This document shows, one piece after another, positions 5,804 to 23,474 of a stretch of 24,991 nt of DNA (position 1 is the first letter of the stretch; each line of letters starts with the position of its first letter). A program made the translations under genes and the position numbers. This stretch comes from a virus (lineage: Duplodnaviria; Caudoviricetes), in the IMG/VR virus record IMGVR_UViG_3300021356_000154, positions 1 through 24,991 of that record; one strand, written 5' to 3'. The notes beneath the pieces were generated by a model. It was given only the letters and a program-made list of their open reading frames with translations. It searched no databases and had not been told where the DNA came from.

Positions 5804-6031
5804 ATGGAAAACATCGAAGCACATATCGCTAAGGACAAAGAGATTCTTCAGAATCCCATGACCTCTCCCCAACAACGTCGTCACATTGAAGAGGAACTGC
5901 ATGATCTAGAAGAATACGTTGAGCATCACAAAGAAGAAATCGAAGCAGGAGATCATCACGATCCCACACCCCTTGAACTCTATTGTGATCAAGAACCTGG
6001 CGCACCTGAGTGCAAAATTCATGATAACTGA
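5804..6031 (+). CDS. cp12: CP12 Calvin-cycle inhibitor (phage auxiliary metabolic gene)
   Basis: Acidic 75-aa protein ending PTPLELYCDQEPGAPECKIHDN, the CP12 C-terminal Cys pair. It lacks the N-terminal Cys pair, as in marine picocyanobacterial and cyanophage CP12. Confidence 0.93.
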   Translation: MENIEAHIAKDKEILQNPMTSPQQRRHIEEELHDLEEYVEHHKEEIEAGDHHDPTPLELYCDQEPGAPECKIHDN

Positions 6032-10240: not shown

Positions 10241-10612
10241 ATGATCAAAACTGCTTTCGCAGCTGCTGCTGCTCTCGCTTTCGCTCCTGCTGCTGCCCTT
10301 GCAGGACCCTACGTCAACGTGGAAACCAATGCTGGTTGGACGGGTTCGGAGTACAATGGTGCCGCTACGGATCTCCACGTAGGCTACGAAGGAACTTTCG
10401 GTGAGTCTGGTTCCTACTACGTTCAGGGCGGTGCTACCGTGCTGACTCCAGACGGCGGTGACGCTGATACCGTCCCCTCTGGTAAGGCAGGTGTCGGTCT
10501 GGGTCTGACCGAGGCACTTGGTGCATATGGTGAGGTCTCGTTCGTTGGTTCTGGTGATGACGATATCGATCGTGGATATGGTGCTAAGCTGGGTCTGAAG
10601 TATTCCTTCTGA
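10241..10612 (+). CDS. Small secreted outer-membrane beta-barrel-like protein
   Basis: Ala-rich signal peptide ending ALA|GP, alternating amphipathic beta-strands, and a C-terminal beta-signal LGLKYSF ending in Phe. Codons are visibly more GC-rich than in flanking genes. Confidence 0.75.
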   Translation: MIKTAFAAAAALAFAPAAALAGPYVNVETNAGWTGSEYNGAATDLHVGYEGTFGESGSYYVQGGATVLTPDGGDADTVPSGKAGVGLGLTEALGAYGEVSFVGSGDDDIDRGYGAKLGLKYSF

Positions 10613-10819: not shown

Positions 10820-11098
10820 ATGTCTTTCAAAGGGTATGAGCTAGAAACAAAATATTGCTGGGTAGACAATACACCAGTCAAGATGTATTTTATTGCTGGT
10901 ATGCCCTTTACATTCGATTCATTAGAAAAAGAAGACAAAGAGAATCAGTGGATACTAGCAGAATGTGCTACAAATCCAGAATTTACTCTAGATTATATCT
11001 ACTCAGCGTCTGATTATTTGATCATGGAAGAAGCACACCCATTATTGTTCAATGTACCTGTATTGAATCCTGAGTTGATGCCTGATGAAACCGTTTGA
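10820..11098 (+). CDS. Hypothetical protein
   Basis: 92-aa ORF between tRNA-Leu and cpeT, overlapping the cpeT start; TAAATA at 10789-10794 upstream. Confidence 0.75.
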   Translation: MSFKGYELETKYCWVDNTPVKMYFIAGMPFTFDSLEKEDKENQWILAECATNPEFTLDYIYSASDYLIMEEAHPLLFNVPVLNPELMPDETV

Positions 11099-11612
11099 AG
11101 ATTGTCTGGAAGGACGTTTTAGTAATAAGTATCAAGCGATGAAGCAACCCACTAGGTATGCACACATCAACATCGCACACATTAAACTGGGTGATCATTT
11201 GTTTTATGGTGAGCAAGCATATGATTATAATCCTAGGCAACCATATCGTCAGTTCATTCTAAAAATACTCCCTATCGGAGATGACTACATAGTACAGAAC
11301 TACGAAGTTCAGGATCCTGAACAACACGTTGGTTGCAAGAATCTAGATATTCTTCGCGAAAAACCCTTGCAAAGACGACTGGGTTGTGATATACTTTTCA
11401 AGTTGGACGGCGAGATGTACAAAGGTTCTCTCGCAGGCAAGGAATGCACGGTTCAGTGGAGAGGTAAGAAGACTTATCTCAAGAACCAAATTGAACTCGG
11501 TGATGATTATTACTGGGTCCTAGATCAGGGATTCGACTTTGAAACTGATCGACAAGTTTGGGGAAGTGAGTGGGGATTCTTGAAATTCTACCGAGAACGT
11601 GGTATAATTTGA
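11085..11612 (+). CDS. cpeT: CpeT/CpcT-family (T-type) phycobiliprotein chromophore lyase
   Basis: GRFSNKYQAMKQP..YAHI, YGEQAYDY..RQPYRQ, GCDILF, CTVQWRGKKTYL and DQGFD...QVWGSEWGFLKF are conserved T-type lyase motifs. Confidence 0.93.
   Translation: MKPFEDCLEGRFSNKYQAMKQPTRYAHINIAHIKLGDHLFYGEQAYDYNPRQPYRQFILKILPIGDDYIVQNYEVQDPEQHVGCKNLDILREKPLQRRLGCDILFKLDGEMYKGSLAGKECTVQWRGKKTYLKNQIELGDDYYWVLDQGFDFETDRQVWGSEWGFLKFYRERGII
11580..11608 (+). promoter_or_regulatory. Strong sigma70-type promoter for the tmRNA/tRNA cluster
   Basis: TTGAAA (11580-11585), a 17-nt spacer, then TGgTATAAT (-10 at 11603-11608), inside the 3' end of cpeT. Confidence 0.8.
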
Positions 11613-11613
11613 G

Positions 11614-11888
11614 CATAGTCCTGATGGATGACTCTAAAAGACATGTAGGTGACGCCACCGACATTTCGGACAGGGGTTCGATTCCCCTCACTTCCACTTC
11701 ATGGGGGTGCCATGGTCTCGACGGGGTATACGGAGCGTGACTGAAACCTGCTTGGATAAGCAACCAATAGATGCAAAAACATCTGATGTCGCAGCGAACA
11801 ATATCGTTGCATTCTCCCGCACTCGCGACCTCGCGACTGCCTGAACGGAGATCGGGGTTAGGTTAGCCTTGTTACCCAAATAACCTAT
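11614..11888 (+). ncRNA. ssrA: Two-piece (circularly permuted) tmRNA
   Basis: The acceptor piece comes first (GGAC, T-arm AGGGG-TTCGATT-CCCCT, CACTTCC-A ending 11696). After a short spacer the 5' piece starts GGGGGTG CCATGGTCTCGAC at 11703. G3.U70 is present, the tag frame reads ...ANNIVAFSRTRDLATA* (stop 11842-11844), and a pseudoknot follows at about 11854-11887. Outer ends are approximate. Confidence 0.92.
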
Positions 11889-11912
11889 TGGGGGTGGGAT
11901 ACCCCCTCCCTC

Positions 11913-11984
11913 GCCCTTGTAGCTCAGTGGTAGAGCAGGGCTTTTGTAAAGCTCAGGTCGTCTGTTCAAATCAGATCGGGGGCT
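11913..11984 (+). tRNA. trnT: tRNA-Thr (anticodon TGT)
   Basis: Acceptor GCCCTTG/CGGGGGC, anticodon arm GGGCT-TTTGTAA-AGCTC, T-loop TTCAAAT. Confidence 0.93.
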
Positions 11985-11986
11985 TA

Positions 11987-12112
11987 CACGGGATGGCGAC
12001 ACCCGTGCTCACGTCTCCAGGAGAAAAAAGAACTGGAAATCCAACCCGCGTGAGAGAGAGGTGGGACCCCTCTTGACTGCTACCGCTGTGGGACGCTGCA
12101 GCGGTTATTTTT
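11987..12112 (+). ncRNA. Unassigned structured RNA between tRNA-Thr and tRNA-Ala
   Basis: Four consecutive GC-rich stems, including a GCGA (GNRA) tetraloop hairpin, fill the whole spacer. Confidence 0.55.
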
Positions 12113-12113
12113 A

Positions 12114-12186
12114 GGGGAATTAGCTCAGTTGGTAGAGCGCCTGCTTTGCAAGCAGGATGTCAGGAGTTCGAGTCTCCTATTCTCCA
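12114..12186 (+). tRNA. trnA: tRNA-Ala (anticodon TGC)
   Basis: Acceptor GGGGAAT/ATTCTCC with G3.U70, anticodon arm CCTGC-TTTGCAA-GCAGG, T-loop TTCGAGT. Confidence 0.96.
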
Positions 12187-12204
12187 TTCGCGAATAGCGA
12201 ATAT

Positions 12205-12277
12205 TCCTCTATAGCTCAGTCGGTAGAGCGTTTGACTGTTAATCAAAATGTCCCTGGTTCGAGCCCAGGTGGAGGAG
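12205..12277 (+). tRNA. trnN: tRNA-Asn (anticodon GTT)
   Basis: Acceptor TCCTCTA/TGGAGGA, anticodon arm TTTGA-CTGTTAA-TCAAA, T-loop TTCGAGC. Confidence 0.96.
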
Positions 12278-12279
12278 TT

Positions 12280-12711
12280 ATGAAAATAATCAGAGATCAC
12301 GTAAAATCTAGAGTCACTTGGGATGACGTGATTAAAAAAATTGATCTAGATTCAAGTCAAGACAGTGATACTCCACTTGTGTTGATAATTAGTGATGATA
12401 GCATGTTGCCGTCACTTCAATTGAAGCACGGCGATCTTTCTAGTTTTCCTGGTAGTCTTCAAGATGCAATGGACGAGTTAAATCCTAAAACTATGGATGT
12501 CTACGTCTCGTTTTCAAAAGTTTCTAAAATATTTCCTTTGCATACTGACCCATATGATGTTATAATAACTCAGATGCTAGGAGAAATTTCTTATGCATTT
12601 GAAGACCAATCTATACATACACTATATCCAGGTGATTCTATCTTCATCCCAGCTTTTGTACCACATAAGGCAGTTTTACATGGACCTAGAATTACACTAA
12701 GTTGTACTTAA
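12280..12711 (+). CDS. JmjC/cupin-like Fe(II)/2-oxoglutarate oxygenase
   Basis: The likely start is ATG 12280, after the tRNAs. HxD...H triad: FPLHTDPYDVIITQMLG ... LYPGDSIFIPAFVPHKA ... RITLS. Confidence 0.8.
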   Translation: MKIIRDHVKSRVTWDDVIKKIDLDSSQDSDTPLVLIISDDSMLPSLQLKHGDLSSFPGSLQDAMDELNPKTMDVYVSFSKVSKIFPLHTDPYDVIITQMLGEISYAFEDQSIHTLYPGDSIFIPAFVPHKAVLHGPRITLSCT

Positions 12712-12717
12712 TTTATT

Positions 12718-12915
12718 ATGAACTACAAACCTTACAGTCAAGAGTGGCATAGATACAGGTATCTCAAGGAAGCAATCGATAAATACCTAGAAGATGGTAT
12801 CGATCCCACTTTCATTATGGATGACCTTCGTGATATCCTTCACATTCGCTCTGAAGCAGCGTATGCTGAGTTCCAACGGATCAACCAACTAGAGCACTAT
12901 CTCTCGGAAGAATAA
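12718..12915 (+). CDS. Hypothetical protein
   Basis: 65-aa ORF tightly packed in the operon. Confidence 0.75.
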   Translation: MNYKPYSQEWHRYRYLKEAIDKYLEDGIDPTFIMDDLRDILHIRSEAAYAEFQRINQLEHYLSEE

Positions 12916-12916
12916 T

Positions 12917-13231
12917 ATGCTGTCTACCAAATACAGACTAAGACTGGAATTTATCTGTAAAAAGATCGCAAACAAGGAGGATGTAAAATTAGAGGATATG
13001 ATCTGGGCAGAGAAACTCGCCAAGTCATATACAACTGCTAGAGACTGGTTAAACAAAGCTCGCCGTCAGGCAGCACAGGATATTCAGGAGGGCAGTATGG
13101 ATGATTTTATGAATAAGATGGGACTAGGCGACCCCGACCCATCTAATTACAGAACGGGGTTCAGTGGTGCCGATGAAATTGTAGATTGGTTCAAGCAAGA
13201 TAAACCTGACGACTGGAGGCAACGTGACTGA
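12917..13231 (+). CDS. Hypothetical protein (cyanophage-type)
   Basis: 104-aa ORF MLSTKYRLRLEFICKKI...DWRQRD, tightly packed with neighbours. Confidence 0.8.
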   Translation: MLSTKYRLRLEFICKKIANKEDVKLEDMIWAEKLAKSYTTARDWLNKARRQAAQDIQEGSMDDFMNKMGLGDPDPSNYRTGFSGADEIVDWFKQDKPDDWRQRD

Positions 13232-13466
13232 TACTGTCGTAATTTATAGTAATGGTAGTCAAGAGTGTGAGCGTATGTCTATGCTGCTCAAAGCACTTGA
13301 TGGTGAGTTCCACGAATACAAATTGGGTCAGCACTTCACAGAACATCAGTTCCGTGGTGAGTTTGGTTCTGAAGCAACCTACCCACAAATCGCTATCGGT
13401 AGACAACATATCGGTAGCATGAAAGAAACACTACAATACATGTCTGAAAAAGGATTATTCTTATGA
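13224..13466 (+). CDS. Glutaredoxin-like protein (SxxC)
   Basis: VVIYS..SQEC, then FGSEATYPQI (cis-Pro motif) and HIGS, consistent with a glutaredoxin fold; GTG start. Confidence 0.8.
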   Translation: MTDTVVIYSNGSQECERMSMLLKALDGEFHEYKLGQHFTEHQFRGEFGSEATYPQIAIGRQHIGSMKETLQYMSEKGLFL

Positions 13467-13618
13467 GCAAAACAATTAAACGTCAATTTGTAACCAAGTC
13501 TGGTGATACCTGGGAGTGGGAAGAGACTGAAGAAACTCGTAAAGCAGTAGCGAAACTGCATCAAACTATTCAATCTAATCTGGAGTCAACTGCATCCGAC
13601 TATGGAGTCGGTAAATAA
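13463..13618 (+). CDS. Small hypothetical protein (51 aa)
   Basis: MSKTIKRQFVTKSGDTWEWEETEETRKAVAKLHQTIQSNLESTASDYGVGK*. ATGA overlap with the glutaredoxin stop; fills the gap; not in the ORF track. Confidence 0.7.
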   Translation: MSKTIKRQFVTKSGDTWEWEETEETRKAVAKLHQTIQSNLESTASDYGVGK

Positions 13619-13623
13619 CTCTG

Positions 13624-13630
13624 ATAAATA
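13624..13630 (+). promoter_or_regulatory. T4-like late promoter (ATAAATA)
   Basis: Intergenic ATAAATA 40 nt upstream of the giant structural gene. Confidence 0.7.
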
Positions 13631-13670
13631 ATCCGAGGACTAACAACACCAGTATTGGTAACACTGAATT

Positions 13671-16600
13671 ATGCCGCTAACTAGACTAGATAACCTGATT
13701 TCCAGTAAGACAGGTCGCTATCTCTACGTCTCTCCAGACGACTTTAATGCTAGTGATGAGCTAGACAATAGAGGTAACTCTCCAAATCGTCCATTCAAGA
13801 CAATTCAGAGAGCATTTATTGAGGTAGCACGTTACTCGTACCTGCCTGGTATTGATAACGATAGATTTGATGAGTTCACCATCATGCTGATGCCTGGTGA
13901 TCACTACATCGATAACCGTCCTGGTCCAGCGAATAATTCAACAACACCAGTATTCAGTTTTGATCAGTCAAACAATGCTTGGACAGATTCTTCCCTCCTA
14001 GATCTATCTAATCCTAACAACGTTCTCTATCAGTTTAACGGCACTGAAGGTGGTTGTGTAGTTCCTCGTGGTTGTTCACTGGTTGGTTATGACCTCCGTC
14101 GTACAATCATTCGTCCTCTATATGTTCCTGATCCTGCAGACAAAGAGCAGGCAAGAACATCAATGTTCAATGTAACTGGTGGCGCATACATTTGGCAGTT
14201 CACAATCAAGGATGGAGATCTCACTACCAAGTCTCCTCTATATGATTCAAACACTGGTGTTGGTAAGGTTTACTATCGTAAAGATGATAGTGCTAACCTA
14301 GCAATTCCTGAGTTCTCTCACCACAAGATCACTGTATTTGAGTACGCTCAAAAGACTGAACTTGAGATCTATTACGAGAAGATTGCTAAAGCATTTGCTG
14401 AGTATCAACCAACGATTGATGATGCAAATGAGTTTGGTGCAAAGATTCAAGAGACCAGAATCGTTGGTCCTTTGTCTGACCTCAGAACGATTGATTCGAT
14501 CAGAGTTACTGATTCCTCACCAGCAGGAACTGTTACTGTTCAGGTAACAACTAAGATTGCTCACGGTTACATTGAAGGGCAGTACGTTGCTATTCAAGAG
14601 AACGGTCTAGATGATGCACTGAATGGTACGTTTGACGTTACTGCTCTCGACACTACCAACCGTAGAGTCTTTGAGTTTGAATTAACAGGAACTGTTGCTG
14701 GTCTGGGTCTACAAAATAACCAGACATATACTACAGGTAATGGTCTATCGACCAACGCATATGTTCAGGCAGAAGTTGACTCTGTTGAGTCTGCATCTCC
14801 TTACATGTTTAACCTGTCGATTCGTTCGACTTGGGGTATCTGTGGTCTGTGGGCAAATGGTGCGAAAGCATCTGGATTTAAGTCCATGGTTTGCGCTCAG
14901 TACACGGGTGTTTCGTTGCAGAAAGACGACAGAGCATTCATTCGTTATGATAGATTTACTAACACATGGAACCAGGCATCTCTAAGTGATGCTTTCGCAA
15001 CTACACCTTATCATACTAAGGGTGATGCATACTGGAAGGATGACTGGAGAAACTTCCACATTCGTGCATCGAATGATTCATTTGTTCAGTGTGTTTCGAT
15101 CTTCGCTGTTGGTTTCGCTGATCACTTCCTGATGGAGTCAGGTGGTGATATGTCCATCACCAACTCTAACTCTAACTTCGGTAACACATCACTTCATGCT
15201 ATCGGACACAAGGGTTACTCCTTCAATCAGGATAAGGGTGGATACATTTCAGATATTATCCCACCAGAAAGATTGGTCGAATCTTCTGCTAACGAAGAAG
15301 AAGTTGATTACTATACCTGGGATGTTCAGGCATCTCGTGGTACAAATACCAAACTATATTTTGCAGGAACAGGAATCACAGATCCTAAGAAGCGTCCTGC
15401 TGCTACTATTAATGGATATAGAATTGGTGCAAAATCGAATGATAAAATCTATGTCGAACTAGATCCTTATGCAGCAGGTTCTGGTAGAACTACCCCAACC
15501 GATGCTATCTTTAATGCAACTTTGGAACCATCAGGTTTCATCTCATATCCATCTTCGATGCAGATCCTCAACCCCACTACGGTGGTTGTTGATAACAAGA
15601 ACCAGGATGCTGCTAACAGAATTGAAGACAACAAAGATCTGATTGCAGAAGAAGCATATGGATACATTACTACAAAGTATCCTGCACTTCTAACTAAGAA
15701 TATCACCATCACTAAGTGTAAGCGAGATATTGGATATCTCCTTGATGCTATCATTGGTGACTTGAGACTTGGTGGTAACATCAATAGTGTTCAAGCTGCT
15801 GAAGCATACTTCACTGGTGGACAACTCAACTACATCGATGGTGAGAAGTTTGAGACCATTGAAGGTTTTGAGTATGCTCGTGACCTAGCAATCGCAGCGA
15901 TGCGTAACTGGGACTTCCTACAAACAGGATGTACAGTTACTAATGGTTCTGCATTTGTTACTGTTCCAACTACTGTCGGTCTATCAATCGGCATGAAGGT
16001 TGAGGAATATACTGTAGTCAACTCCAACAATACAACTGTTGATACTAACAGTCTGACTACATCAAACATTCCTGCTAACACTTACATCAGAAACATTGTT
16101 AACTCAACAACTATCGAACTTGGTAGTGTTGTAAATGGTGTGAGAGCATACTTGACTACTGGTCAAGCAGTTAATGCGATTGGAACCAATAGCAATGCGA
16201 AAATCCTCTTCAAGCTAGAAGATGATAATGGCGATCGTAAGGGTATTTGGTCAAGTGAAGAGGGTACAGTAGACACAACTATCACTCAAGACACAGTTTA
16301 TCCTGAGTGTGCTACCACTGCATCTGCAATTCAGTCTCTATTCGGTCAAGTTAAGACTATCCTTAACAATGGTATCAACCCTGTTGGTGATCGTTTTGCT
16401 GACGCATCTGATCTACTCCTAGCAAACAAAAACTACATCGCTGATGTAGCAGTTAAGGATATGGAAATCCAGTATCCTAACTTCAATGTTCCTGGTGGTA
16501 GCGTCAACTGTTTCGATGACGTTGTTGATGTTGTTGAAGCAATCGCATACAACGTTAAGTATGGTTCAAACAACCAAGTATATGATGCTGCTAATCTCTA

Positions 16601-19600
16601 TGTAACTGGTGCTCACGTTGCTGGTGAGGAAGAGCAATCAGTATATGTCTTCGATAAGGCACTGGAGATTGCTACAGCAGTCATCCAGAACATTGTATAC
16701 AACCCTCGCGCTGGTCTCACCACCACTTACACACAGACTAGAGATCTAACAATTACTGTTGATCCTAATCCTGTTGGTGGACAATATTGTGCTGATGTTA
16801 TCTCAGCAATGACCACTTTGTTCAACTTGATCGAAGCTGGTATTGATAATGCTGGTACTGTATATCCTGCGAACGCTGGTGTATTTGCTGGTACAACTAA
16901 GTCATCACCACAGCAGACAGTAGTTGCTCGTCAGAATCCAACGACATCTACGTCACAGTTTGCTAACCGTGCAACACTATTCACTGTTAATGCTGGTGGT
17001 ACTAATCCTCACCGCTTTGAAACTGGAACCCCAGTTCGTCTGGTTGCTAGAGCAAAAGCAGGAACAACTCCTGATGAAAGAGATATCCGTCTACCAGTTG
17101 GATTCCAACCAAACAGAACTTACTTTGTAATTGCTCCTGGTAGAGATACTCAACCATTTAACTATAACCAAGCAAGTGTTTATAGTGGTATCTTTGATGG
17201 TGGCGATCAGACTAAACTGATGCTTGCTAACACCAAAGAGAACGCTGCAGCAGGTATCTACATCTATTCACCTGAAACTGAGGCGATTGATGATGATGTT
17301 GAGATCTTAATCCAACAGTATGTTCTAGATGAAACATACAATCTTCACGAGTATCGTGTTACTTTCGATGGTAGCAGCGGTACAGTATTGAAGACGGATG
17401 TTGCACACATCTTCGACAAACCAACAACAGGATTGGGTGCTGATTATATTCAGAAGGTATTCTTCAGAGCAGAAGGTTCTGATGGTCAGGTAGGTACTCT
17501 ACCCACACTGTCTGGTATTGGCGGTACACAAATCTCTGGTACAACTGAGTATTATGTACGCTACAATAGCGATGATACCTTTAAGATCTTTGCTACGGCA
17601 CAAGATGCAATTACTGGTGCGCCAGAAGTAACACTAGTCAACAGCACGACTCAGTTCTGGTACGTCTTCGCTAACAAGCGTGTATCTCCAATGAGATTTG
17701 ACCCAACGTTTGTTGATACAAGTGCATCTAGAGCGCCTGCAATTACTGATGGTCTCTGGTATCTAAATCTTAAAGATGAGACTTCCAACGACGATAACAT
17801 CTTAGGAAGATTCAGTGAGAGTGACTATGATTCTGCTTCTGGTCAGGTTCAGACAACTGACTCTTTCTACACACGTCTTGAAGATAAGCGTGATAAAGAT
17901 GATAGAATCTATCGTTTGCGTTATGTCCAACCAAAAGACTTCCCTGGTGCTGTAAGAAAACCAAACAATGGTTTTGTTATCAAGATTCGTACTGATACGA
18001 AGAGAAATCTTCTACCTCAGAGAATCGTACTCGAACCTATTGGAGGTGCTCCCGCATTAGCAGAGTTCCGTAACCCAGATACAACCAATGCCGCTGAGGT
18101 TATTGGTATGTCTGTTAATCAGTTTGATGCTGCAGTTCAGGCTGGTACTCTAGATAAGGATAATATCTATGATCCAGATAACAATCCAGTTATTGTTAAC
18201 ACAGATAACTTCCTACGTTTCAGCATCCGCTCTGCTAGAACGGTTTCTATTAACTCTCAACCACTGTTAGAAGTTACCGCGTTTGACCATACTGTTGATG
18301 ATACAAACGCACCACAACTTAAGAACACAGTCTTCCACACTGTAGAGATTAATGCACCTCAAGCAGGTACATTTACTGTAAGTAAGACATCATCCACTGT
18401 ATCAAATAGAGTTGAGTGGACTGGTGGTTCCAGTGGTTTTGGTTACATTCACGCTTACTTTAATGTCGGTGCTAAGCATTTCATCATTCTGAAAGATGTT
18501 AGTGCTCGTCCAACATATGATCCATTGGTCAACACAAGATTTGATCAAAATGGTGTCTATGCTGATCAACAGGCAGATGTAAATGGTGGTAGAGATCTAA
18601 CTTCTGAGTATCTCTATGTTGTACAGGGTGCTAACGTATTCACTTTAACTCCTGGTGATACTGTAGACGACTCTGTTGGTAATACCTATAAGGTTCTTTC
18701 TGTTGAAGATGAGAATGATATCGATGATACTTTCTACATCTTTGATGCTGAAGAGATTCAAGAGCGTGTATCTGGTCAGCAAGATGGTATTTACTATCTA
18801 ACTGCTGTTCGTGGTAACGTCACTCCACTACCTCGTGGTGCTGGTGTTGCTAACAACTTCCAGAACTTTAAGTTCTCTCAACCTATTTCATCACTGTATC
18901 CTCTAGACTACAAGAACGATCCAACTTGGTATCAGGTTATCGATAACAATGGTACTAAGGATACTCTAATCAAAGATCCACAGGCATCTAGTTCTTTTGC
19001 TGATAACTATACTCATGGTCTAGTTTACGTCAACGACTACAAGCGTTCAATGACGAAAGAGGCAGTTGTTGATCTAACTGAAAGTGCATACTTTGAAGAT
19101 TACACCTACACTGGTGCTAACTCAATTGCTGCACAAGATGGTAATGCAACATCTGGTTCCGAGCAAAGAAAGATTCCTATTGCTGGTGATACTGCATCGG
19201 TTCACGATCAGAAAGTTTATGTTGAACTACGTAGACCATCTATCGCAAGATCTGGTAACCACACGTTTGAATACCTTGGTTTCGGTCCTGGTAACTACTC
19301 CACAGGTCTCCCAGCACGTCAGGAAGTCATTCTAACTGAGTTCCAAGACTACTATGCTCAAGCGAAGCGCCAAGACGGCGGTATCGTCTTCTACACGGGT
19401 CTAAACTCTAACGGTGACCTTTATATCGGTAACCGTAAGATTGACGCTATTACAGGCGAAGAGGAGTTCCTTGAGAGAGCAGTTCTAGCTGAGTCTGAGG
19501 ATGATTCTGATCCTATTGAGTCACTGGTCACATCATTTGATACTCCAGTTACATTTAAGGATAAGATCACTGTTGAAGGTATTTCTTACCTCAACAACAG

Positions 19601-22600
19601 AGTCATCATCAATACTCAACCACCTTCAGAATCACCAGCACTGGTCATTCAATCAAACCCAAGAAATGATGGTGGTAACGAAGATAATACTCTAACAAGA
19701 GGCAATTTCGCTAACCGAAGTGATGGCGACATTACCATTGATCGCAATAAAATTTCCGCGGCTATTTTTGAGACAAAAGGTCGCGGTACAGTTTCCTTCC
19801 CTGGACAGACATATAGTCAGAGAACTCACTATTCATACTCTGAGCAGATCCCAACTAACAGAACTCCTGATCAAAGTTCAACATTCTCATCTGACCAGTT
19901 TGTAAGATATTATCAATCTACAGATGTAGATGCGAATCCACAACCAGGAGATATGTTGCTGAAGGGCAATTCTATCCAAAACTCTGGTTCTCTTGGATGG
20001 ATCTATGCGAACTATTATCAAGAGATCCCTGCTGGTAGCATTCTTGATCTTGTAACCAATGGTTCTGCAACTGTTAGAATTAACTGGAGTGGTGTTCTAA
20101 CGAACGCAGACACCAGCATTAAGATGAGTGTTGGTAAGACAATCCGCATTCAAGGATTCTCTCAACCACTGATCAACGGTCTATGGACAGTTACAAGAGC
20201 AGATCAAACAGGTGCTGATAATGACTTTATTGAATTTGTTGTTGCTAATGCGATCACTGGTGCAACTTACACTTGGGATCCAACAAATCAACCAACTGCA
20301 GTTCTAGAGCGTTCTGAAGAATCGTGGAAAGAATTTGGTGTTCTTGGTTCTGAAGCACTTAGAACTGATACTGATGCTATCGGTGAGTATAAGTTGGGTG
20401 TTAACACACTTGCTCGTACTGCACATGCTGCACACGAATTTGGATTCCTAACATATTCTGCTGGTGGAACAACATATGATCAGCAAGAACCAAGAGCAAA
20501 CTTGGATGTTGTTGGTAATGCATTCATTAGTGGTAGAACAATCACTAATGCTCAGTACATGGCTGGTACTGGAACTGCAAAGGGTGAGACGAATGTTCAT
20601 GAAGCATTCCTAGTTGGCGGTGACTCTGCTTCACCACAATCTACAGCACTGTTTAGAGTTGATACAGTCAACAATCGTGTTGGTATTAACCTATCCAGAA
20701 GTGATCTAAGTGATACTTTAACAATTAATGGTACACTTAAACTACTTGGTGCAAATGCTAATGTAGATATTGACGGCGATCTCAATGTTGATGGTGGAGA
20801 TATCACAACAAATGAATCGACATTCAATCTACTGAATGATAATGCACTCACAGTCAATGCATTTGGTGATGCTACTGCACTTAACATTGCTGATGATGCA
20901 ACAGCAGATCAAACTATCAATATTGGTACATCTTCTGCAGGACTTGGTACTCTCAATATTCATACCAGTCTAGACAGATCGGTTATTAACATTGGTACAA
21001 CACCAAATAATAATCCTACATCAACGTCTGTTATTACAATTGGTGGTGGATTCCAGAATACTGCTAACTCCACACTGACTGTTAAGAACGCTCAGACAAT
21101 TCTTGATGGTGATCTAGATGTTAATGGTGGTGATATTCAGTCTAATTCTTCTACTATTAATCTCTTTACGAGATCTGGTGCTGGTAACATCGTCAACTTT
21201 GCATCGAGAGCGTCACAGTTCACTCTTGGTGGTGTTGCTGGAACAACAACAATTAGAAACTCTCTGATTGTTAACGGCGATACAGACATGATGGGTGATG
21301 TCACCATGAATGGTGGATCAAACAGTGGTACTGTTACTGTTACTAGAGCATCACTGAATACCAGTAAGATTGCACACTCTGCTGGTTCACTTTCAAATCT
21401 GAATGTTGACTTCTATGAGTTCATCGCTGATATTGATGGTGCTGAAATTATTACCAGTGTAAATGGTAGCAACGGTCAAATGGTTGTTGCAGATAACTAT
21501 TTCCTCGATGGTAACACAGTTAGATTCAGTGATACCACTGGTCTTTCTAACAATGTAAACACCACTACAACATACTTCGTCGTTAATAGTTCTGCTGCTA
21601 ATGGAACACTTCAGATTGCTGCTACTGAGGGTGGTACTCCTATTGTCTTCTCTGGTACTCCTGGTACTTCAACTGGCATCACACTTCAGAACACGTTGGT
21701 TGATACTGGATCAGGCACTAACGCTTGGACTGGTAATCCTTCTGATGCTGAGTATACTAGACTTCCTGTTAATAACGTTGAGGGTATTGAGATCGGTGAT
21801 ATTCTAATCATCGGTACTGAACTGGTTGAGGTTATCTCTCCTGGTCCAGATGCTAATACTAGAATCGTTCCTGTTAACAGAGGTGTTGATTGTACAACTA
21901 TTCCAACCAACACAGCAGATAACACGGTTATCAACAAACTTGCTAAGTCTCCTGGTGCAACATATACCGTTGGTAGAGTTCCACAGAACGCAGCAACTCC
22001 TGCAGTATCTAATCTAAATGCAGTTGCAGATACACTTGAAGTTCCCATTGGTGAACTACAAGAAGGTGATGCAGTTTCCTTTAGTTCAATCGGAAGCATT
22101 CAAGGTGCTATCGTACAAGGTACAACATACTTCGTAGCGAACGTTATTAACGATACTGCTAATAGCGTCACTAGATTTAATCTAGCAGCTGATCCTGGCG
22201 GTGGTGCTCTAGACATTACTGGCGGATCTACTACTGGTGCAGTCCTCAACTTCAGCGATACTTTGATTGCTCTCGCTGAGTTTGGTGGTCAGATTAAGGT
22301 TGGTGATTACCTGAGAATCAGTCCAAGCACCACTTGCCCATCAGGTGAATTTGTAGAAGTTATTACTGTTAACAGCACAAATGCTGAGAAGTTTACTGTT
22401 AATAACGGTGCAAATCAGGATAGATTTGTAATTGATTCTGTCTTTGGTGGTGTTGACTCAACCATTCTTGGTGAGCAAGACTTCAGCATTAACCTCACTG
22501 CTGTTGCATCAACCAATGCAGATGATAACAAGTTCAGAGTTATTAATGGAACTGGTCTCAATCCAACAGAGAGATTTACAATCAATGCTGCTGGTACTAC

Positions 22601-23474
22601 TGACTTTGTTGGTGATGGAACTACGGCAGATCCTAATGCTAGACTCAGATCTGATGGTATGTTCTGGTTGTCTAATGTCTTCAGAATTACCAACGGAAAT
22701 GGTGGTAATATTGATAGTGATAGTGATGACCTCGCTCTATTCTTCGACAATAGCAATGGTAACCTAGATGTTCAGGGTCATATCAGACTCGGTGATAATC
22801 TCTCGGTATTCAAAGATCATGGTACTGGTGTTGGATTTGGTAGCGCAGATCGTGTCTTCCATGTCGCAAATGCTGATGGTGATACAACAATCGGTGAAAC
22901 TGGTGGTGCATATGGTGAAGGTGATCTAACTGTTAACGGTGGTCATCTCACGTTGGTTGGTACATCAACCACAACCCCAAGTAGCACTGATTATCCACTA
23001 AGCATCACAAACATGGGTGAAAGTGGTAATAGAAACTATAGAATCCGTCGTGATGCTGCTATTGATGCATTCGGTGTTACTCAGTTCTATAACAAGAACG
23101 GTGGTCGTAGATGGGATTACATCAACGCTAACACAACACTTGAAACTGGTCACAACTACATCGTCGCAGTCTCTGCGGATACAGTTCTAACCCTACCAGA
23201 TGATGCAGAGACGGGTGATATGATTAGATTTATTGAAGTTACTGGTTCAATCTCATATGCACAGTCTATAATTCTTCGCGCTCCAACTGGTGTTGCTATT
23301 CAAGGTGATACCACTGGTACAAACGCTGGTGGTCTTCCTTCCGCTTATCAAGGTGGTGAGTTGATTGTCCAAACTAGAAATGCTGGTTTCGGACTAGTCT
23401 TTATGGGATCACAAGATGGTGGTGGTCAGTCAATCCCGACTACATATAGAGGATGGTGGTTAACCGAAATTTGA
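13671..23474 (+). CDS. Giant virion structural / tail-fibre-like protein (3267 aa)
   Basis: N-terminal LYVS...GNS...PFKTIQRA motif and pectin-lyase-like beta-helix segments, Gly/Thr/Asn-rich fibre repeats (DGDLNVDGGDI and DGDLDVNGGDI), and a C-terminal 'LTLP..A.TGD.IRF' module. Late promoter upstream; contains two phycobiliprotein-like helical segments. Confidence 0.85.
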   Translation: MPLTRLDNLISSKTGRYLYVSPDDFNASDELDNRGNSPNRPFKTIQRAFIEVARYSYLPGIDNDRFDEFTIMLMPGDHYIDNRPGPANNSTTPVFSFDQSNNAWTDSSLLDLSNPNNVLYQFNGTEGGCVVPRGCSLVGYDLRRTIIRPLYVPDPADKEQARTSMFNVTGGAYIWQFTIKDGDLTTKSPLYDSNTGVGKVYYRKDDSANLAIPEFSHHKITVFEYAQKTELEIYYEKIAKAFAEYQPTIDDANEFGAKIQETRIVGPLSDLRTIDSIRVTDSSPAGTVTVQVTTKIAHGYIEGQYVAIQENGLDDALNGTFDVTALDTTNRRVFEFELTGTVAGLGLQNNQTYTTGNGLSTNAYVQAEVDSVESASPYMFNLSIRSTWGICGLWANGAKASGFKSMVCAQYTGVSLQKDDRAFIRYDRFTNTWNQASLSDAFATTPYHTKGDAYWKDDWRNFHIRASNDSFVQCVSIFAVGFADHFLMESGGDMSITNSNSNFGNTSLHAIGHKGYSFNQDKGGYISDIIPPERLVESSANEEEVDYYTWDVQASRGTNTKLYFAGTGITDPKKRPAATINGYRIGAKSNDKIYVELDPYAAGSGRTTPTDAIFNATLEPSGFISYPSSMQILNPTTVVVDNKNQDAANRIEDNKDLIAEEAYGYITTKYPALLTKNITITKCKRDIGYLLDAIIGDLRLGGNINSVQAAEAYFTGGQLNYIDGEKFETIEGFEYARDLAIAAMRNWDFLQTGCTVTNGSAFVTVPTTVGLSIGMKVEEYTVVNSNNTTVDTNSLTTSNIPANTYIRNIVNSTTIELGSVVNGVRAYLTTGQAVNAIGTNSNAKILFKLEDDNGDRKGIWSSEEGTVDTTITQDTVYPECATTASAIQSLFGQVKTILNNGINPVGDRFADASDLLLANKNYIADVAVKDMEIQYPNFNVPGGSVNCFDDVVDVVEAIAYNVKYGSNNQVYDAANLYVTGAHVAGEEEQSVYVFDKALEIATAVIQNIVYNPRAGLTTTYTQTRDLTITVDPNPVGGQYCADVISAMTTLFNLIEAGIDNAGTVYPANAGVFAGTTKSSPQQTVVARQNPTTSTSQFANRATLFTVNAGGTNPHRFETGTPVRLVARAKAGTTPDERDIRLPVGFQPNRTYFVIAPGRDTQPFNYNQASVYSGIFDGGDQTKLMLANTKENAAAGIYIYSPETEAIDDDVEILIQQYVLDETYNLHEYRVTFDGSSGTVLKTDVAHIFDKPTTGLGADYIQKVFFRAEGSDGQVGTLPTLSGIGGTQISGTTEYYVRYNSDDTFKIFATAQDAITGAPEVTLVNSTTQFWYVFANKRVSPMRFDPTFVDTSASRAPAITDGLWYLNLKDETSNDDNILGRFSESDYDSASGQVQTTDSFYTRLEDKRDKDDRIYRLRYVQPKDFPGAVRKPNNGFVIKIRTDTKRNLLPQRIVLEPIGGAPALAEFRNPDTTNAAEVIGMSVNQFDAAVQAGTLDKDNIYDPDNNPVIVNTDNFLRFSIRSARTVSINSQPLLEVTAFDHTVDDTNAPQLKNTVFHTVEINAPQAGTFTVSKTSSTVSNRVEWTGGSSGFGYIHAYFNVGAKHFIILKDVSARPTYDPLVNTRFDQNGVYADQQADVNGGRDLTSEYLYVVQGANVFTLTPGDTVDDSVGNTYKVLSVEDENDIDDTFYIFDAEEIQERVSGQQDGIYYLTAVRGNVTPLPRGAGVANNFQNFKFSQPISSLYPLDYKNDPTWYQVIDNNGTKDTLIKDPQASSSFADNYTHGLVYVNDYKRSMTKEAVVDLTESAYFEDYTYTGANSIAAQDGNATSGSEQRKIPIAGDTASVHDQKVYVELRRPSIARSGNHTFEYLGFGPGNYSTGLPARQEVILTEFQDYYAQAKRQDGGIVFYTGLNSNGDLYIGNRKIDAITGEEEFLERAVLAESEDDSDPIESLVTSFDTPVTFKDKITVEGISYLNNRVIINTQPPSESPALVIQSNPRNDGGNEDNTLTRGNFANRSDGDITIDRNKISAAIFETKGRGTVSFPGQTYSQRTHYSYSEQIPTNRTPDQSSTFSSDQFVRYYQSTDVDANPQPGDMLLKGNSIQNSGSLGWIYANYYQEIPAGSILDLVTNGSATVRINWSGVLTNADTSIKMSVGKTIRIQGFSQPLINGLWTVTRADQTGADNDFIEFVVANAITGATYTWDPTNQPTAVLERSEESWKEFGVLGSEALRTDTDAIGEYKLGVNTLARTAHAAHEFGFLTYSAGGTTYDQQEPRANLDVVGNAFISGRTITNAQYMAGTGTAKGETNVHEAFLVGGDSASPQSTALFRVDTVNNRVGINLSRSDLSDTLTINGTLKLLGANANVDIDGDLNVDGGDITTNESTFNLLNDNALTVNAFGDATALNIADDATADQTINIGTSSAGLGTLNIHTSLDRSVINIGTTPNNNPTSTSVITIGGGFQNTANSTLTVKNAQTILDGDLDVNGGDIQSNSSTINLFTRSGAGNIVNFASRASQFTLGGVAGTTTIRNSLIVNGDTDMMGDVTMNGGSNSGTVTVTRASLNTSKIAHSAGSLSNLNVDFYEFIADIDGAEIITSVNGSNGQMVVADNYFLDGNTVRFSDTTGLSNNVNTTTTYFVVNSSAANGTLQIAATEGGTPIVFSGTPGTSTGITLQNTLVDTGSGTNAWTGNPSDAEYTRLPVNNVEGIEIGDILIIGTELVEVISPGPDANTRIVPVNRGVDCTTIPTNTADNTVINKLAKSPGATYTVGRVPQNAATPAVSNLNAVADTLEVPIGELQEGDAVSFSSIGSIQGAIVQGTTYFVANVINDTANSVTRFNLAADPGGGALDITGGSTTGAVLNFSDTLIALAEFGGQIKVGDYLRISPSTTCPSGEFVEVITVNSTNAEKFTVNNGANQDRFVIDSVFGGVDSTILGEQDFSINLTAVASTNADDNKFRVINGTGLNPTERFTINAAGTTDFVGDGTTADPNARLRSDGMFWLSNVFRITNGNGGNIDSDSDDLALFFDNSNGNLDVQGHIRLGDNLSVFKDHGTGVGFGSADRVFHVANADGDTTIGETGGAYGEGDLTVNGGHLTLVGTSTTTPSSTDYPLSITNMGESGNRNYRIRRDAAIDAFGVTQFYNKNGGRRWDYINANTTLETGHNYIVAVSADTVLTLPDDAETGDMIRFIEVTGSISYAQSIILRAPTGVAIQGDTTGTNAGGLPSAYQGGELIVQTRNAGFGLVFMGSQDGGGQSIPTTYRGWWLTEI

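Follow-up and report, generated by a model that had tools for sequence, protein, structure and literature searches.

The window analysed here, a stretch of 24,991 nucleotides (nt) covering positions 1 to 24,991 of the IMG/VR virus record IMGVR_UViG_3300021356_000154 (Duplodnaviria; Caudoviricetes), is the tail module of a T4-like cyanophage according to the family assignments of its genes. It encodes CpeT (11085..11612, +), a T-type phycobiliprotein lyase homologue of 175 amino acids (aa), and a giant tail/fibre protein of 3267 aa (13671..23474, +) that carries two phycobiliprotein-like domains, A and B. We consider it probable that the phage CpeT chromophorylates these virion domains and would transfer bilin to Cys1040 in domain B and probably to Cys880 in domain A. 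The fold of the domains, their bilin-site residues, the lyase family and the co-occurrence of both genes were observed here, while the specificity of T-type lyases and the presence of homologous giant proteins in virions are taken from the literature. The chemistry would be of a known kind; new would be its substrate and its place, a virus particle. A preliminary description of this DNA had placed cpeT about 2 kb upstream of a gene with conspicuous cysteines, and this was correct: the giant open reading frame (ORF) starts 2058 nt past the cpeT stop codon, and Cys683, Cys880, Cys947 and Cys1040 are all found in its product.

Phycobiliprotein-like domains and a T-type lyase homologue

The giant protein contains only 12 cysteines in its 3267 residues, including the four just named. 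Domain B (aa 907-1058; 16389..16844, +) is a complete beta-like domain with Asp911, Cys947 (codon 16509), Asp950 and the Cys155-type Cys1040 (codon 16788), and is part of the large ORF rather than a free subunit of about 170 aa. In a phmmer comparison based on the single sequence, D911, C947, D950 and C1040 align with D39, C82, D85 and C153 of phycocyanin beta (6jpr_B), although with a weak E-value of 0.43. A profile of 48 rows made from the window and IMG/VR copies reached a best PDB match of 7e-5, and the best 60 of the 88 rows that it retrieved from the PDB at E<=1 were all phycobiliproteins. The AlphaFold2 model of domain B showed a predicted local distance difference test (pLDDT) of 86.4 and a predicted template modelling (TM) score of 0.85. 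Its top Foldseek matches were phycoerythrin beta chains with TM-scores of 0.70-0.75 over about 160 columns (5aqd_M: 0.75 over 159 columns). The PF00502 score is 14.7 bits, below the cut-off of 22.2, and 22 of 48 aligned domain members match this family at E<=0.1 (best 1.4e-5).

Domain A is interrupted. Its helices A-G (aa 642-750; 15594..15920, +) comprise Asp646 (Asp39-type), Cys683 (Cys84-type, codon 15717) and Asp686 and were recognised by PF00502 (E 0.031) and by profile matches. A beta-rich insert of about 118 aa (approximately aa 751-868; 15921..16274, +), visible in the alignment and as strands in the model, separates helix G from a displaced helix H (16275..16379, +; helix-H profile 12.9 bits) with the putative Cys155-type Cys880 (codon 16308). 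This cysteine starts a helix in the model of domain A (pLDDT 81-84) and is kept in six of six close relatives shown. The model resembles phycoerythrin weakly, with Foldseek alignments of 106-131 columns and E>=0.037 that cover helices A-G only. Because these alignments fail to bridge the insert, Cys880 is assigned as a beta-155-type site by sequence only. Of the two beta-Cys153-like motifs named in the preliminary description, Cys1040 is supported by alignment and fold, and the structural placement of Cys880 was not confirmed.

Conservation across the domains of the reference phages amounts to 71 of 78 for the Cys84-type cysteine, 74 of 78 for the Asp87-type residue and 63 of 70 for the Asp39-type residue. 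With a background cysteine content of 0.42%, this retention of bilin-site residues is not due to chance. An arginine at position +2 of the Cys84-type site occurs in only 33 of 78 reference domains; the window has Arg685 in domain A and Asp949 in domain B.

Phycoerythrin and phycocyanin beta subunits (CpeB, CpcB; PF00502) and the phage domains share a globin-type core as well as equivalents of Cys82, Cys153, Asp39 and Asp85. In contrast to these subunits, to which they are 15-19% identical, the phage domains lack the N-terminal X/Y helices for alpha-beta pairing, as matches begin at residue 34-35 of the beta chains. Moreover, they are arranged in tandem or nested in tail proteins of 900-7300 aa, often with helix H displaced by inserts. 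A precedent for a bilin domain within a big scaffold protein is ApcE (LCM), which differs in being autocatalytic, in having one Cys84-type site and in its location in the phycobilisome core.

Nested domains were seen in several loci (L009:3726-4163, L011, L012, L015, L021-L029), where inserts or whole domains open them between helices B/E or G/H. Helix H then returns hundreds of residues later, which suggests a fibre that runs out and back. The giant ORFs of L088, L089, L090, L099 and L105 also contain another repeat, whose single conserved cysteine lies in the motif F-T/S-C and which in many cases continues with H-x-Y-P-R or a YD motif. It is present in up to about 40 copies per protein, between and inside the phycobiliprotein-like domains. 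Its conserved cysteine is possibly a metal or disulfide site.

CpeT of the window is the long, S-PM2-like form (PHROG 488) and matches PF06206 over its full length (146 bits against a curated cut-off of 21; model positions 4-181; E 1.1e-42). It is closer to Nostoc CpcT (4o4o, 6e-28) than to CpeT of phage P-HM1 (5hi8, 2e-9). In the alignment, window CpeT and Nostoc CpcT have Tyr-Arg, two Cys, Asp and Trp-Gly motifs in common, which we take to be pocket residues of T-type lyases; PYR, C and D are near-invariant across 17 phage CpeTs. The resemblance to the T-type lyases CpcT and CpeT (Nostoc CpcT, 4O4O), whose site in CpcB and PecB is Cys155, extends over family and full-length alignment, and the proposed target is of the same site type. 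The window protein differs from them in being phage-encoded and outside a cpeESR or cpcBA context, in that its lyase activity is predicted, and in that the phage genome offers a virion protein as its sole Cys155-type target. P-HM1 CpeT belongs to the same phage gene family and sits in the same place after gp5. It is a short form of 134 aa, and the domains occur in P-HM1 as well, in gp7 and in a fibre gene. In the work of Gasper and colleagues from 2017, P-HM1 CpeT was reportedly tested against host subunits only. The phage protein is said to bind phycoerythrobilin (PEB) without passing it on to the beta subunit of the host, with a very stable CpeT-PEB complex feeding host CpeS. According to the accessible text of PMC2327270, T-type lyases are specific for beta-Cys155, in agreement with the preliminary description, and CpcS is nearly universal for Cys84.

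Distribution of cpeT and the domains in cyanophages

A single-query search over 50,697 phage records detected the domain in 338, every one labelled Synechococcus, Prochlorococcus or 'Cyanophage'. Domain B has structural matches in BFVD to the uncultured phage proteins A0A6J5KPQ2, A0A6J7WHK8 and A0A6J5KU10, from phages of unassigned host (E 5e-5 to 3e-4), and a weak one to a virion protein of S-TIM5 (E 0.82); the domain may thus not be confined to T4-like cyanophages. No usable cellular homologue was found in a scan sensitive to close relatives only or in the ESM Atlas, and a single 26-aa match in Acidobacteriota was dismissed. A search by title and abstract, with subscription journals largely outside its coverage, returned no publication describing the domain or its pairing with cpeT.

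Relatives of the giant protein were detected in virions. Eight peptides of S-SM1 T4-GC969 (18543 nt) were found in purified particles (accessible supplement of PMC3037559), and the length of this gene fits a domain-bearing frame of 6180 aa. ORF104 and ORF112 of S-SCSM2R are listed in the virion proteome and termed exoproteins in the accessible text of PMC12801897, which does not mention the domain there; these two ORFs contain all six domain matches of that genome. The giant protein of the window itself is a putative virion component by its PHROG assignments (PHROG 4527, short tail fiber; PHROG 529, tail fiber) and a late-promoter-like motif only. Its orthologue in S-PM2 is annotated as short tail fiber.

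With one single-query search for each of the two counts, cpeT was found in 269 of approximately 463 T4-like cyanophage records and thus ranks among the most frequent 'photosynthesis' genes of these phages. To this we added a comparison of 28 complete cyanophage records and one non-cyanophage control (Melnitz-2), which we chose to be spread over genera. Three of the records were picked for their published lack of cpeT (PMC3037559 Table 3), several positives came from match lists and S-SCSM2R was added for its cpeT. Both cpeT and the domain were present in 20 records and both were absent from seven (P-SSM2, S-SM2, S-SSM7, S-CAM9, S-CRM01, P-TIM68 and MA01) as well as from the control. S-SKS1 had the domain only, and none had cpeT only (Fisher p 7e-6, uncorrected). 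This is the association that the preliminary description had proposed to look for in cyanophage genomes. The searches start with a loose first look and may miss very distant copies, and the negatives stayed negative under broader profiles. Pfam missed cpeT of ACG-2014f, which a phage-built profile found. On a portal-protein tree that leaves out Melnitz-2, cpeT changes three times and the domain four times. The two reappear jointly twice inside a mostly negative clade, in S-CAM7/ACG-2014f and in S-SCSM2R, at unlinked positions. S-SCSM2R, picked solely for its cpeT, has six domain matches; its sister S-SSM7 has neither. An extension to 160 portal loci from IMG/VR was not usable for co-occurrence, with only four contigs longer than 100 kb, one of them a copy of S-CRM01. 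In Syn1 (NC_015288), cpeT is present at 19950-20465 together with the domain, whereas PMC3037559 Table 3 lists no cpeT for this phage.

A Cys155-type site is kept in all 20 cpeT phages, 16 times by profile, including S-SCSM2R, and four times by eye from cysteine lists (P-SSM4, P-RSM4, ACG-2014f and S-CAM7). P-SSM4 has three domains without any Cys84-type cysteine and with one helix-H (Cys155-type) cysteine left. The protein with the single domain in S-SKS1 (L103:7338-7781) has 928 aa and would be a natural case of loading by host lyases or by spontaneous addition. S-type lyases were absent from all 21 domain-bearing records; the sole match among the 29 records is a CpeS/CpcS-like S-type lyase of MA01 (W24, PP110484; 2584-2994), a phage without cpeT and without a detectable domain.

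Bilin reductases were detected in six of 28 records, a search that left out S-SCSM2R: P-HM1, P-SSM4, P-RSM4, P-SSM7, P-SSM2 and S-SSM7. The first four are the four domain-bearing Prochlorococcus isolates. The preliminary description had suggested that phage enzymes possibly supply the bilin. Among the 20 records in this search that have the domain, this applies to only four, and two reductase phages, P-SSM2 (W03, 51114-51698) and S-SSM7 (W05, 142303-142755), have neither cpeT nor the domain. For the phage analysed here, the sequence covered is the window itself. In P-SSM7 (W08), a pcyA-type bilin reductase lies directly 3' of cpeT (13650-14535).

Proposed chromophore transfer to the virion and competing explanations

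In the proposed mechanism, CpeT would be made in the middle phase of infection and would load bilin made by the host or, in Prochlorococcus phages, by the phage. Before assembly, it would then pass the bilin to the Cys155-type cysteines of the late-made fibre or baseplate protein. For the Cys84-type sites, the broad S-type lyase of the host would be responsible, an enzyme that these phages do not encode, and the finished virion would be pigmented.

It is unlikely that CpeT serves the virion domains only indirectly, binding and storing bilin while the thioether bonds are formed by host lyases or by spontaneous addition. Such a store would account equally well for the co-occurrence and also for the middle timing, and apoproteins can take up bilins spontaneously, with low fidelity (accessible text of PMC2327270). 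However, it offers no reason for a Cys155-type site in every cpeT phage, nor for P-SSM4 keeping that site alone.

We judge it quite improbable that CpeT is a photosynthesis gene directed at phycoerythrin or phycocyanin assembly in the host and merely shares old phage lineages with the domains. This corresponds to the current view in the literature, where the role of phage cpeT is called unresolved and a model paper from 2026 lists the gene as helping host phycobiliprotein assembly (accessible text of PMC13041748). It is in line with the middle expression together with psbA in P-HM2, with the proximity of window CpeT to Nostoc CpcT rather than P-HM1 CpeT, with the small number of independent contrasts and with the location of cpeT near gp5, in a gene hot spot known to be rich in tRNAs. 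It is at odds with the absence of cpeT-only genomes (0 of 28) and with the two joint returns of both traits at unlinked positions in a mostly negative clade. Moreover, the only phycobiliprotein of Prochlorococcus MED4 has Cys82 as its single site (accessible text of bioRxiv 2020.03.31.018853), and yet this host, which offers no Cys155 target, is infected by P-HM1 and P-HM2, both equipped with cpeT and the domains.

That the domains are captured folds acting as plain structural or host-binding modules, devoid of bilin and with cysteines that serve disulfides or are retained on other grounds, appears very improbable. In favour of this reading, one or both cysteines have been lost from some copies, further repeats of these proteins likewise keep single cysteines, and the literature search brought up no account of coloured virions. 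Against it, both cysteines and both aspartates are kept jointly (71/78, 74/78, 63/70) at 20-45% overall identity, the two cysteines, which occupy separate chromophore sites of the phycobiliprotein fold, are lost independently of each other, and the domains are linked to cpeT.

Several observations weigh against chromophorylation of the virion domains by CpeT, the reading that we prefer. Four independent pairs differ in the domain; cpeT follows in three of them and shows no difference in one, and these three contrasts give a sign test p of 0.25. Furthermore, 14 of the 20 positives belong to one clade, in a genome sample chosen by us. In the window, cpeT and the giant gene are separate transcription units, with a promoter, the tmRNA and tRNA genes, a hairpin and a late-promoter-like motif between them. 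The P-SSM4 domain to which the surviving Cys155 would belong carries Asn in place of Asp39, S-SKS1 has both cysteines but no cpeT, and MA01 with its S-type-like lyase indicates that phage lyases can exist without such a substrate. P-HM1 and P-HM2 also infect NATL2A (accessible text of PMC6628666), and the comparison of host sites covers MED4 alone. Finally, cpeT of P-HM2 is a middle gene like psbA, while gp7 and the genes of the fibre region belong to the late class (PMC5082946 S2 Table). An enzyme produced earlier than its substrate would fit this timing as well. Since cpeT is a middle gene in P-HM2, its label as a morphogenesis gene in the preliminary description is not supported. The idea in that description that the virion domains are the substrate gains from the co-occurrence (20/0/1/7), the Cys155-type site in 20 of 20 cpeT phages and the lack of Cys155 in MED4, and is held back by the three independent contrasts.

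The role of a pigment on the particle is less certain, and light-gated adsorption is our leading guess. It concerns the old puzzle that some cyanophages adsorb only in light, independently of host photosynthesis. According to the accessible text of PMC6628666, darkness prevents the adsorption of P-HM1 and P-HM2, P-SSM2 adsorbs in the dark less well than in light, and adsorption of S-PM2 is light-dependent without a need for photosynthesis. The domain is carried by P-HM1, P-HM2 and S-PM2 and is missing in P-SSM2, which agrees with the dark adsorption of these four phages, too few to weigh much. It may tentatively be speculated that most T4-like cyanophages have a CpeT-pigmented biliprotein in baseplate and fibres as a light switch on the free particle, which would be the mechanism of light-dependent, photosynthesis-independent adsorption, although we doubt this more than we believe it. 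PEB lacks the double bond that is isomerised in photoswitching bilins; therefore, screening, stabilisation or host recognition are possible uses of the bound pigment as well.

If CpeT indeed acts on the virion, the long-open question on the role of this common phage gene would be answered, and surveys and metabolic models would be wrong to list cpeT as an auxiliary metabolic gene. Cyanophage particles would be the first virions known to carry an enzymatically attached chromophore. The isolated domains are predicted to be small, monomer-like biliproteins with two sites and may serve as fluorescent tags.

Genomic setting of cpeT and the giant gene

The window comprises genes for a tail tube protein, gp26, gp5, CP12, an OMP-like protein, CpeT, a transfer-messenger RNA (tmRNA), four tRNAs, the 3267-aa tail protein and a collar-domain fibre. 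The two-piece tmRNA gene (11607..11935, +) overlaps the cpeT stop codon and tRNA-Thr, and a sigma-70-like promoter (11/12) ahead of it lies inside the 3' end of cpeT at 11580-11608. Between cpeT and the giant gene follow tRNA-Thr, a terminator-like hairpin (12082-12105), tRNA-Ala and tRNA-Asn (together 11913..12278, +) and also five small genes. The motif NATAAATA just 5' of the giant gene (13623..13630, +) resembles a T4-type late promoter.

Adjacency of cpeT and the domain gene was also seen in S-PM2, S-RSM4 and the IMG/VR loci L002/L006 and L010. No cpeT was seen in the other 22 of 24 domain loci, most of which are cut too close to the domain to tell. In most relatives the two genes are about 27-55 kb apart: P-HM1 has cpeT at 19 kb and domain genes at 46-59 and 78-89 kb, and S-CAM7 has cpeT at 157 kb and domain genes at 187-197 kb. 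Because of this spacing and the separate units in the window, we set aside the 2-kb proximity as weak evidence for a pair of enzyme and substrate.

A late-promoter link for cpeT was not counted as support either. Of 19 reference phages, 12 have NATAAATA within the 1.2 kb ahead of cpeT and none has it on the opposite strand, but in at least four phages the motif runs into the stop codon that lies upstream; it also precedes another small gene and is absent ahead of the window's own cpeT. In many relatives (L059-L068, L072, L073), a gene of 70-81 aa, likely CP12 in our assumption, lies directly 5' of cpeT behind a late-promoter-like motif; CP12 of the window sits elsewhere (5804-6031). The cyanophage OMP-like beta-barrel gene (PF24653) is located at 10241-10612. 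A JmjC/cupin gene is listed at 12157-12711, and its true start is probably later because the listed start overlaps tRNA-Ala/Asn.

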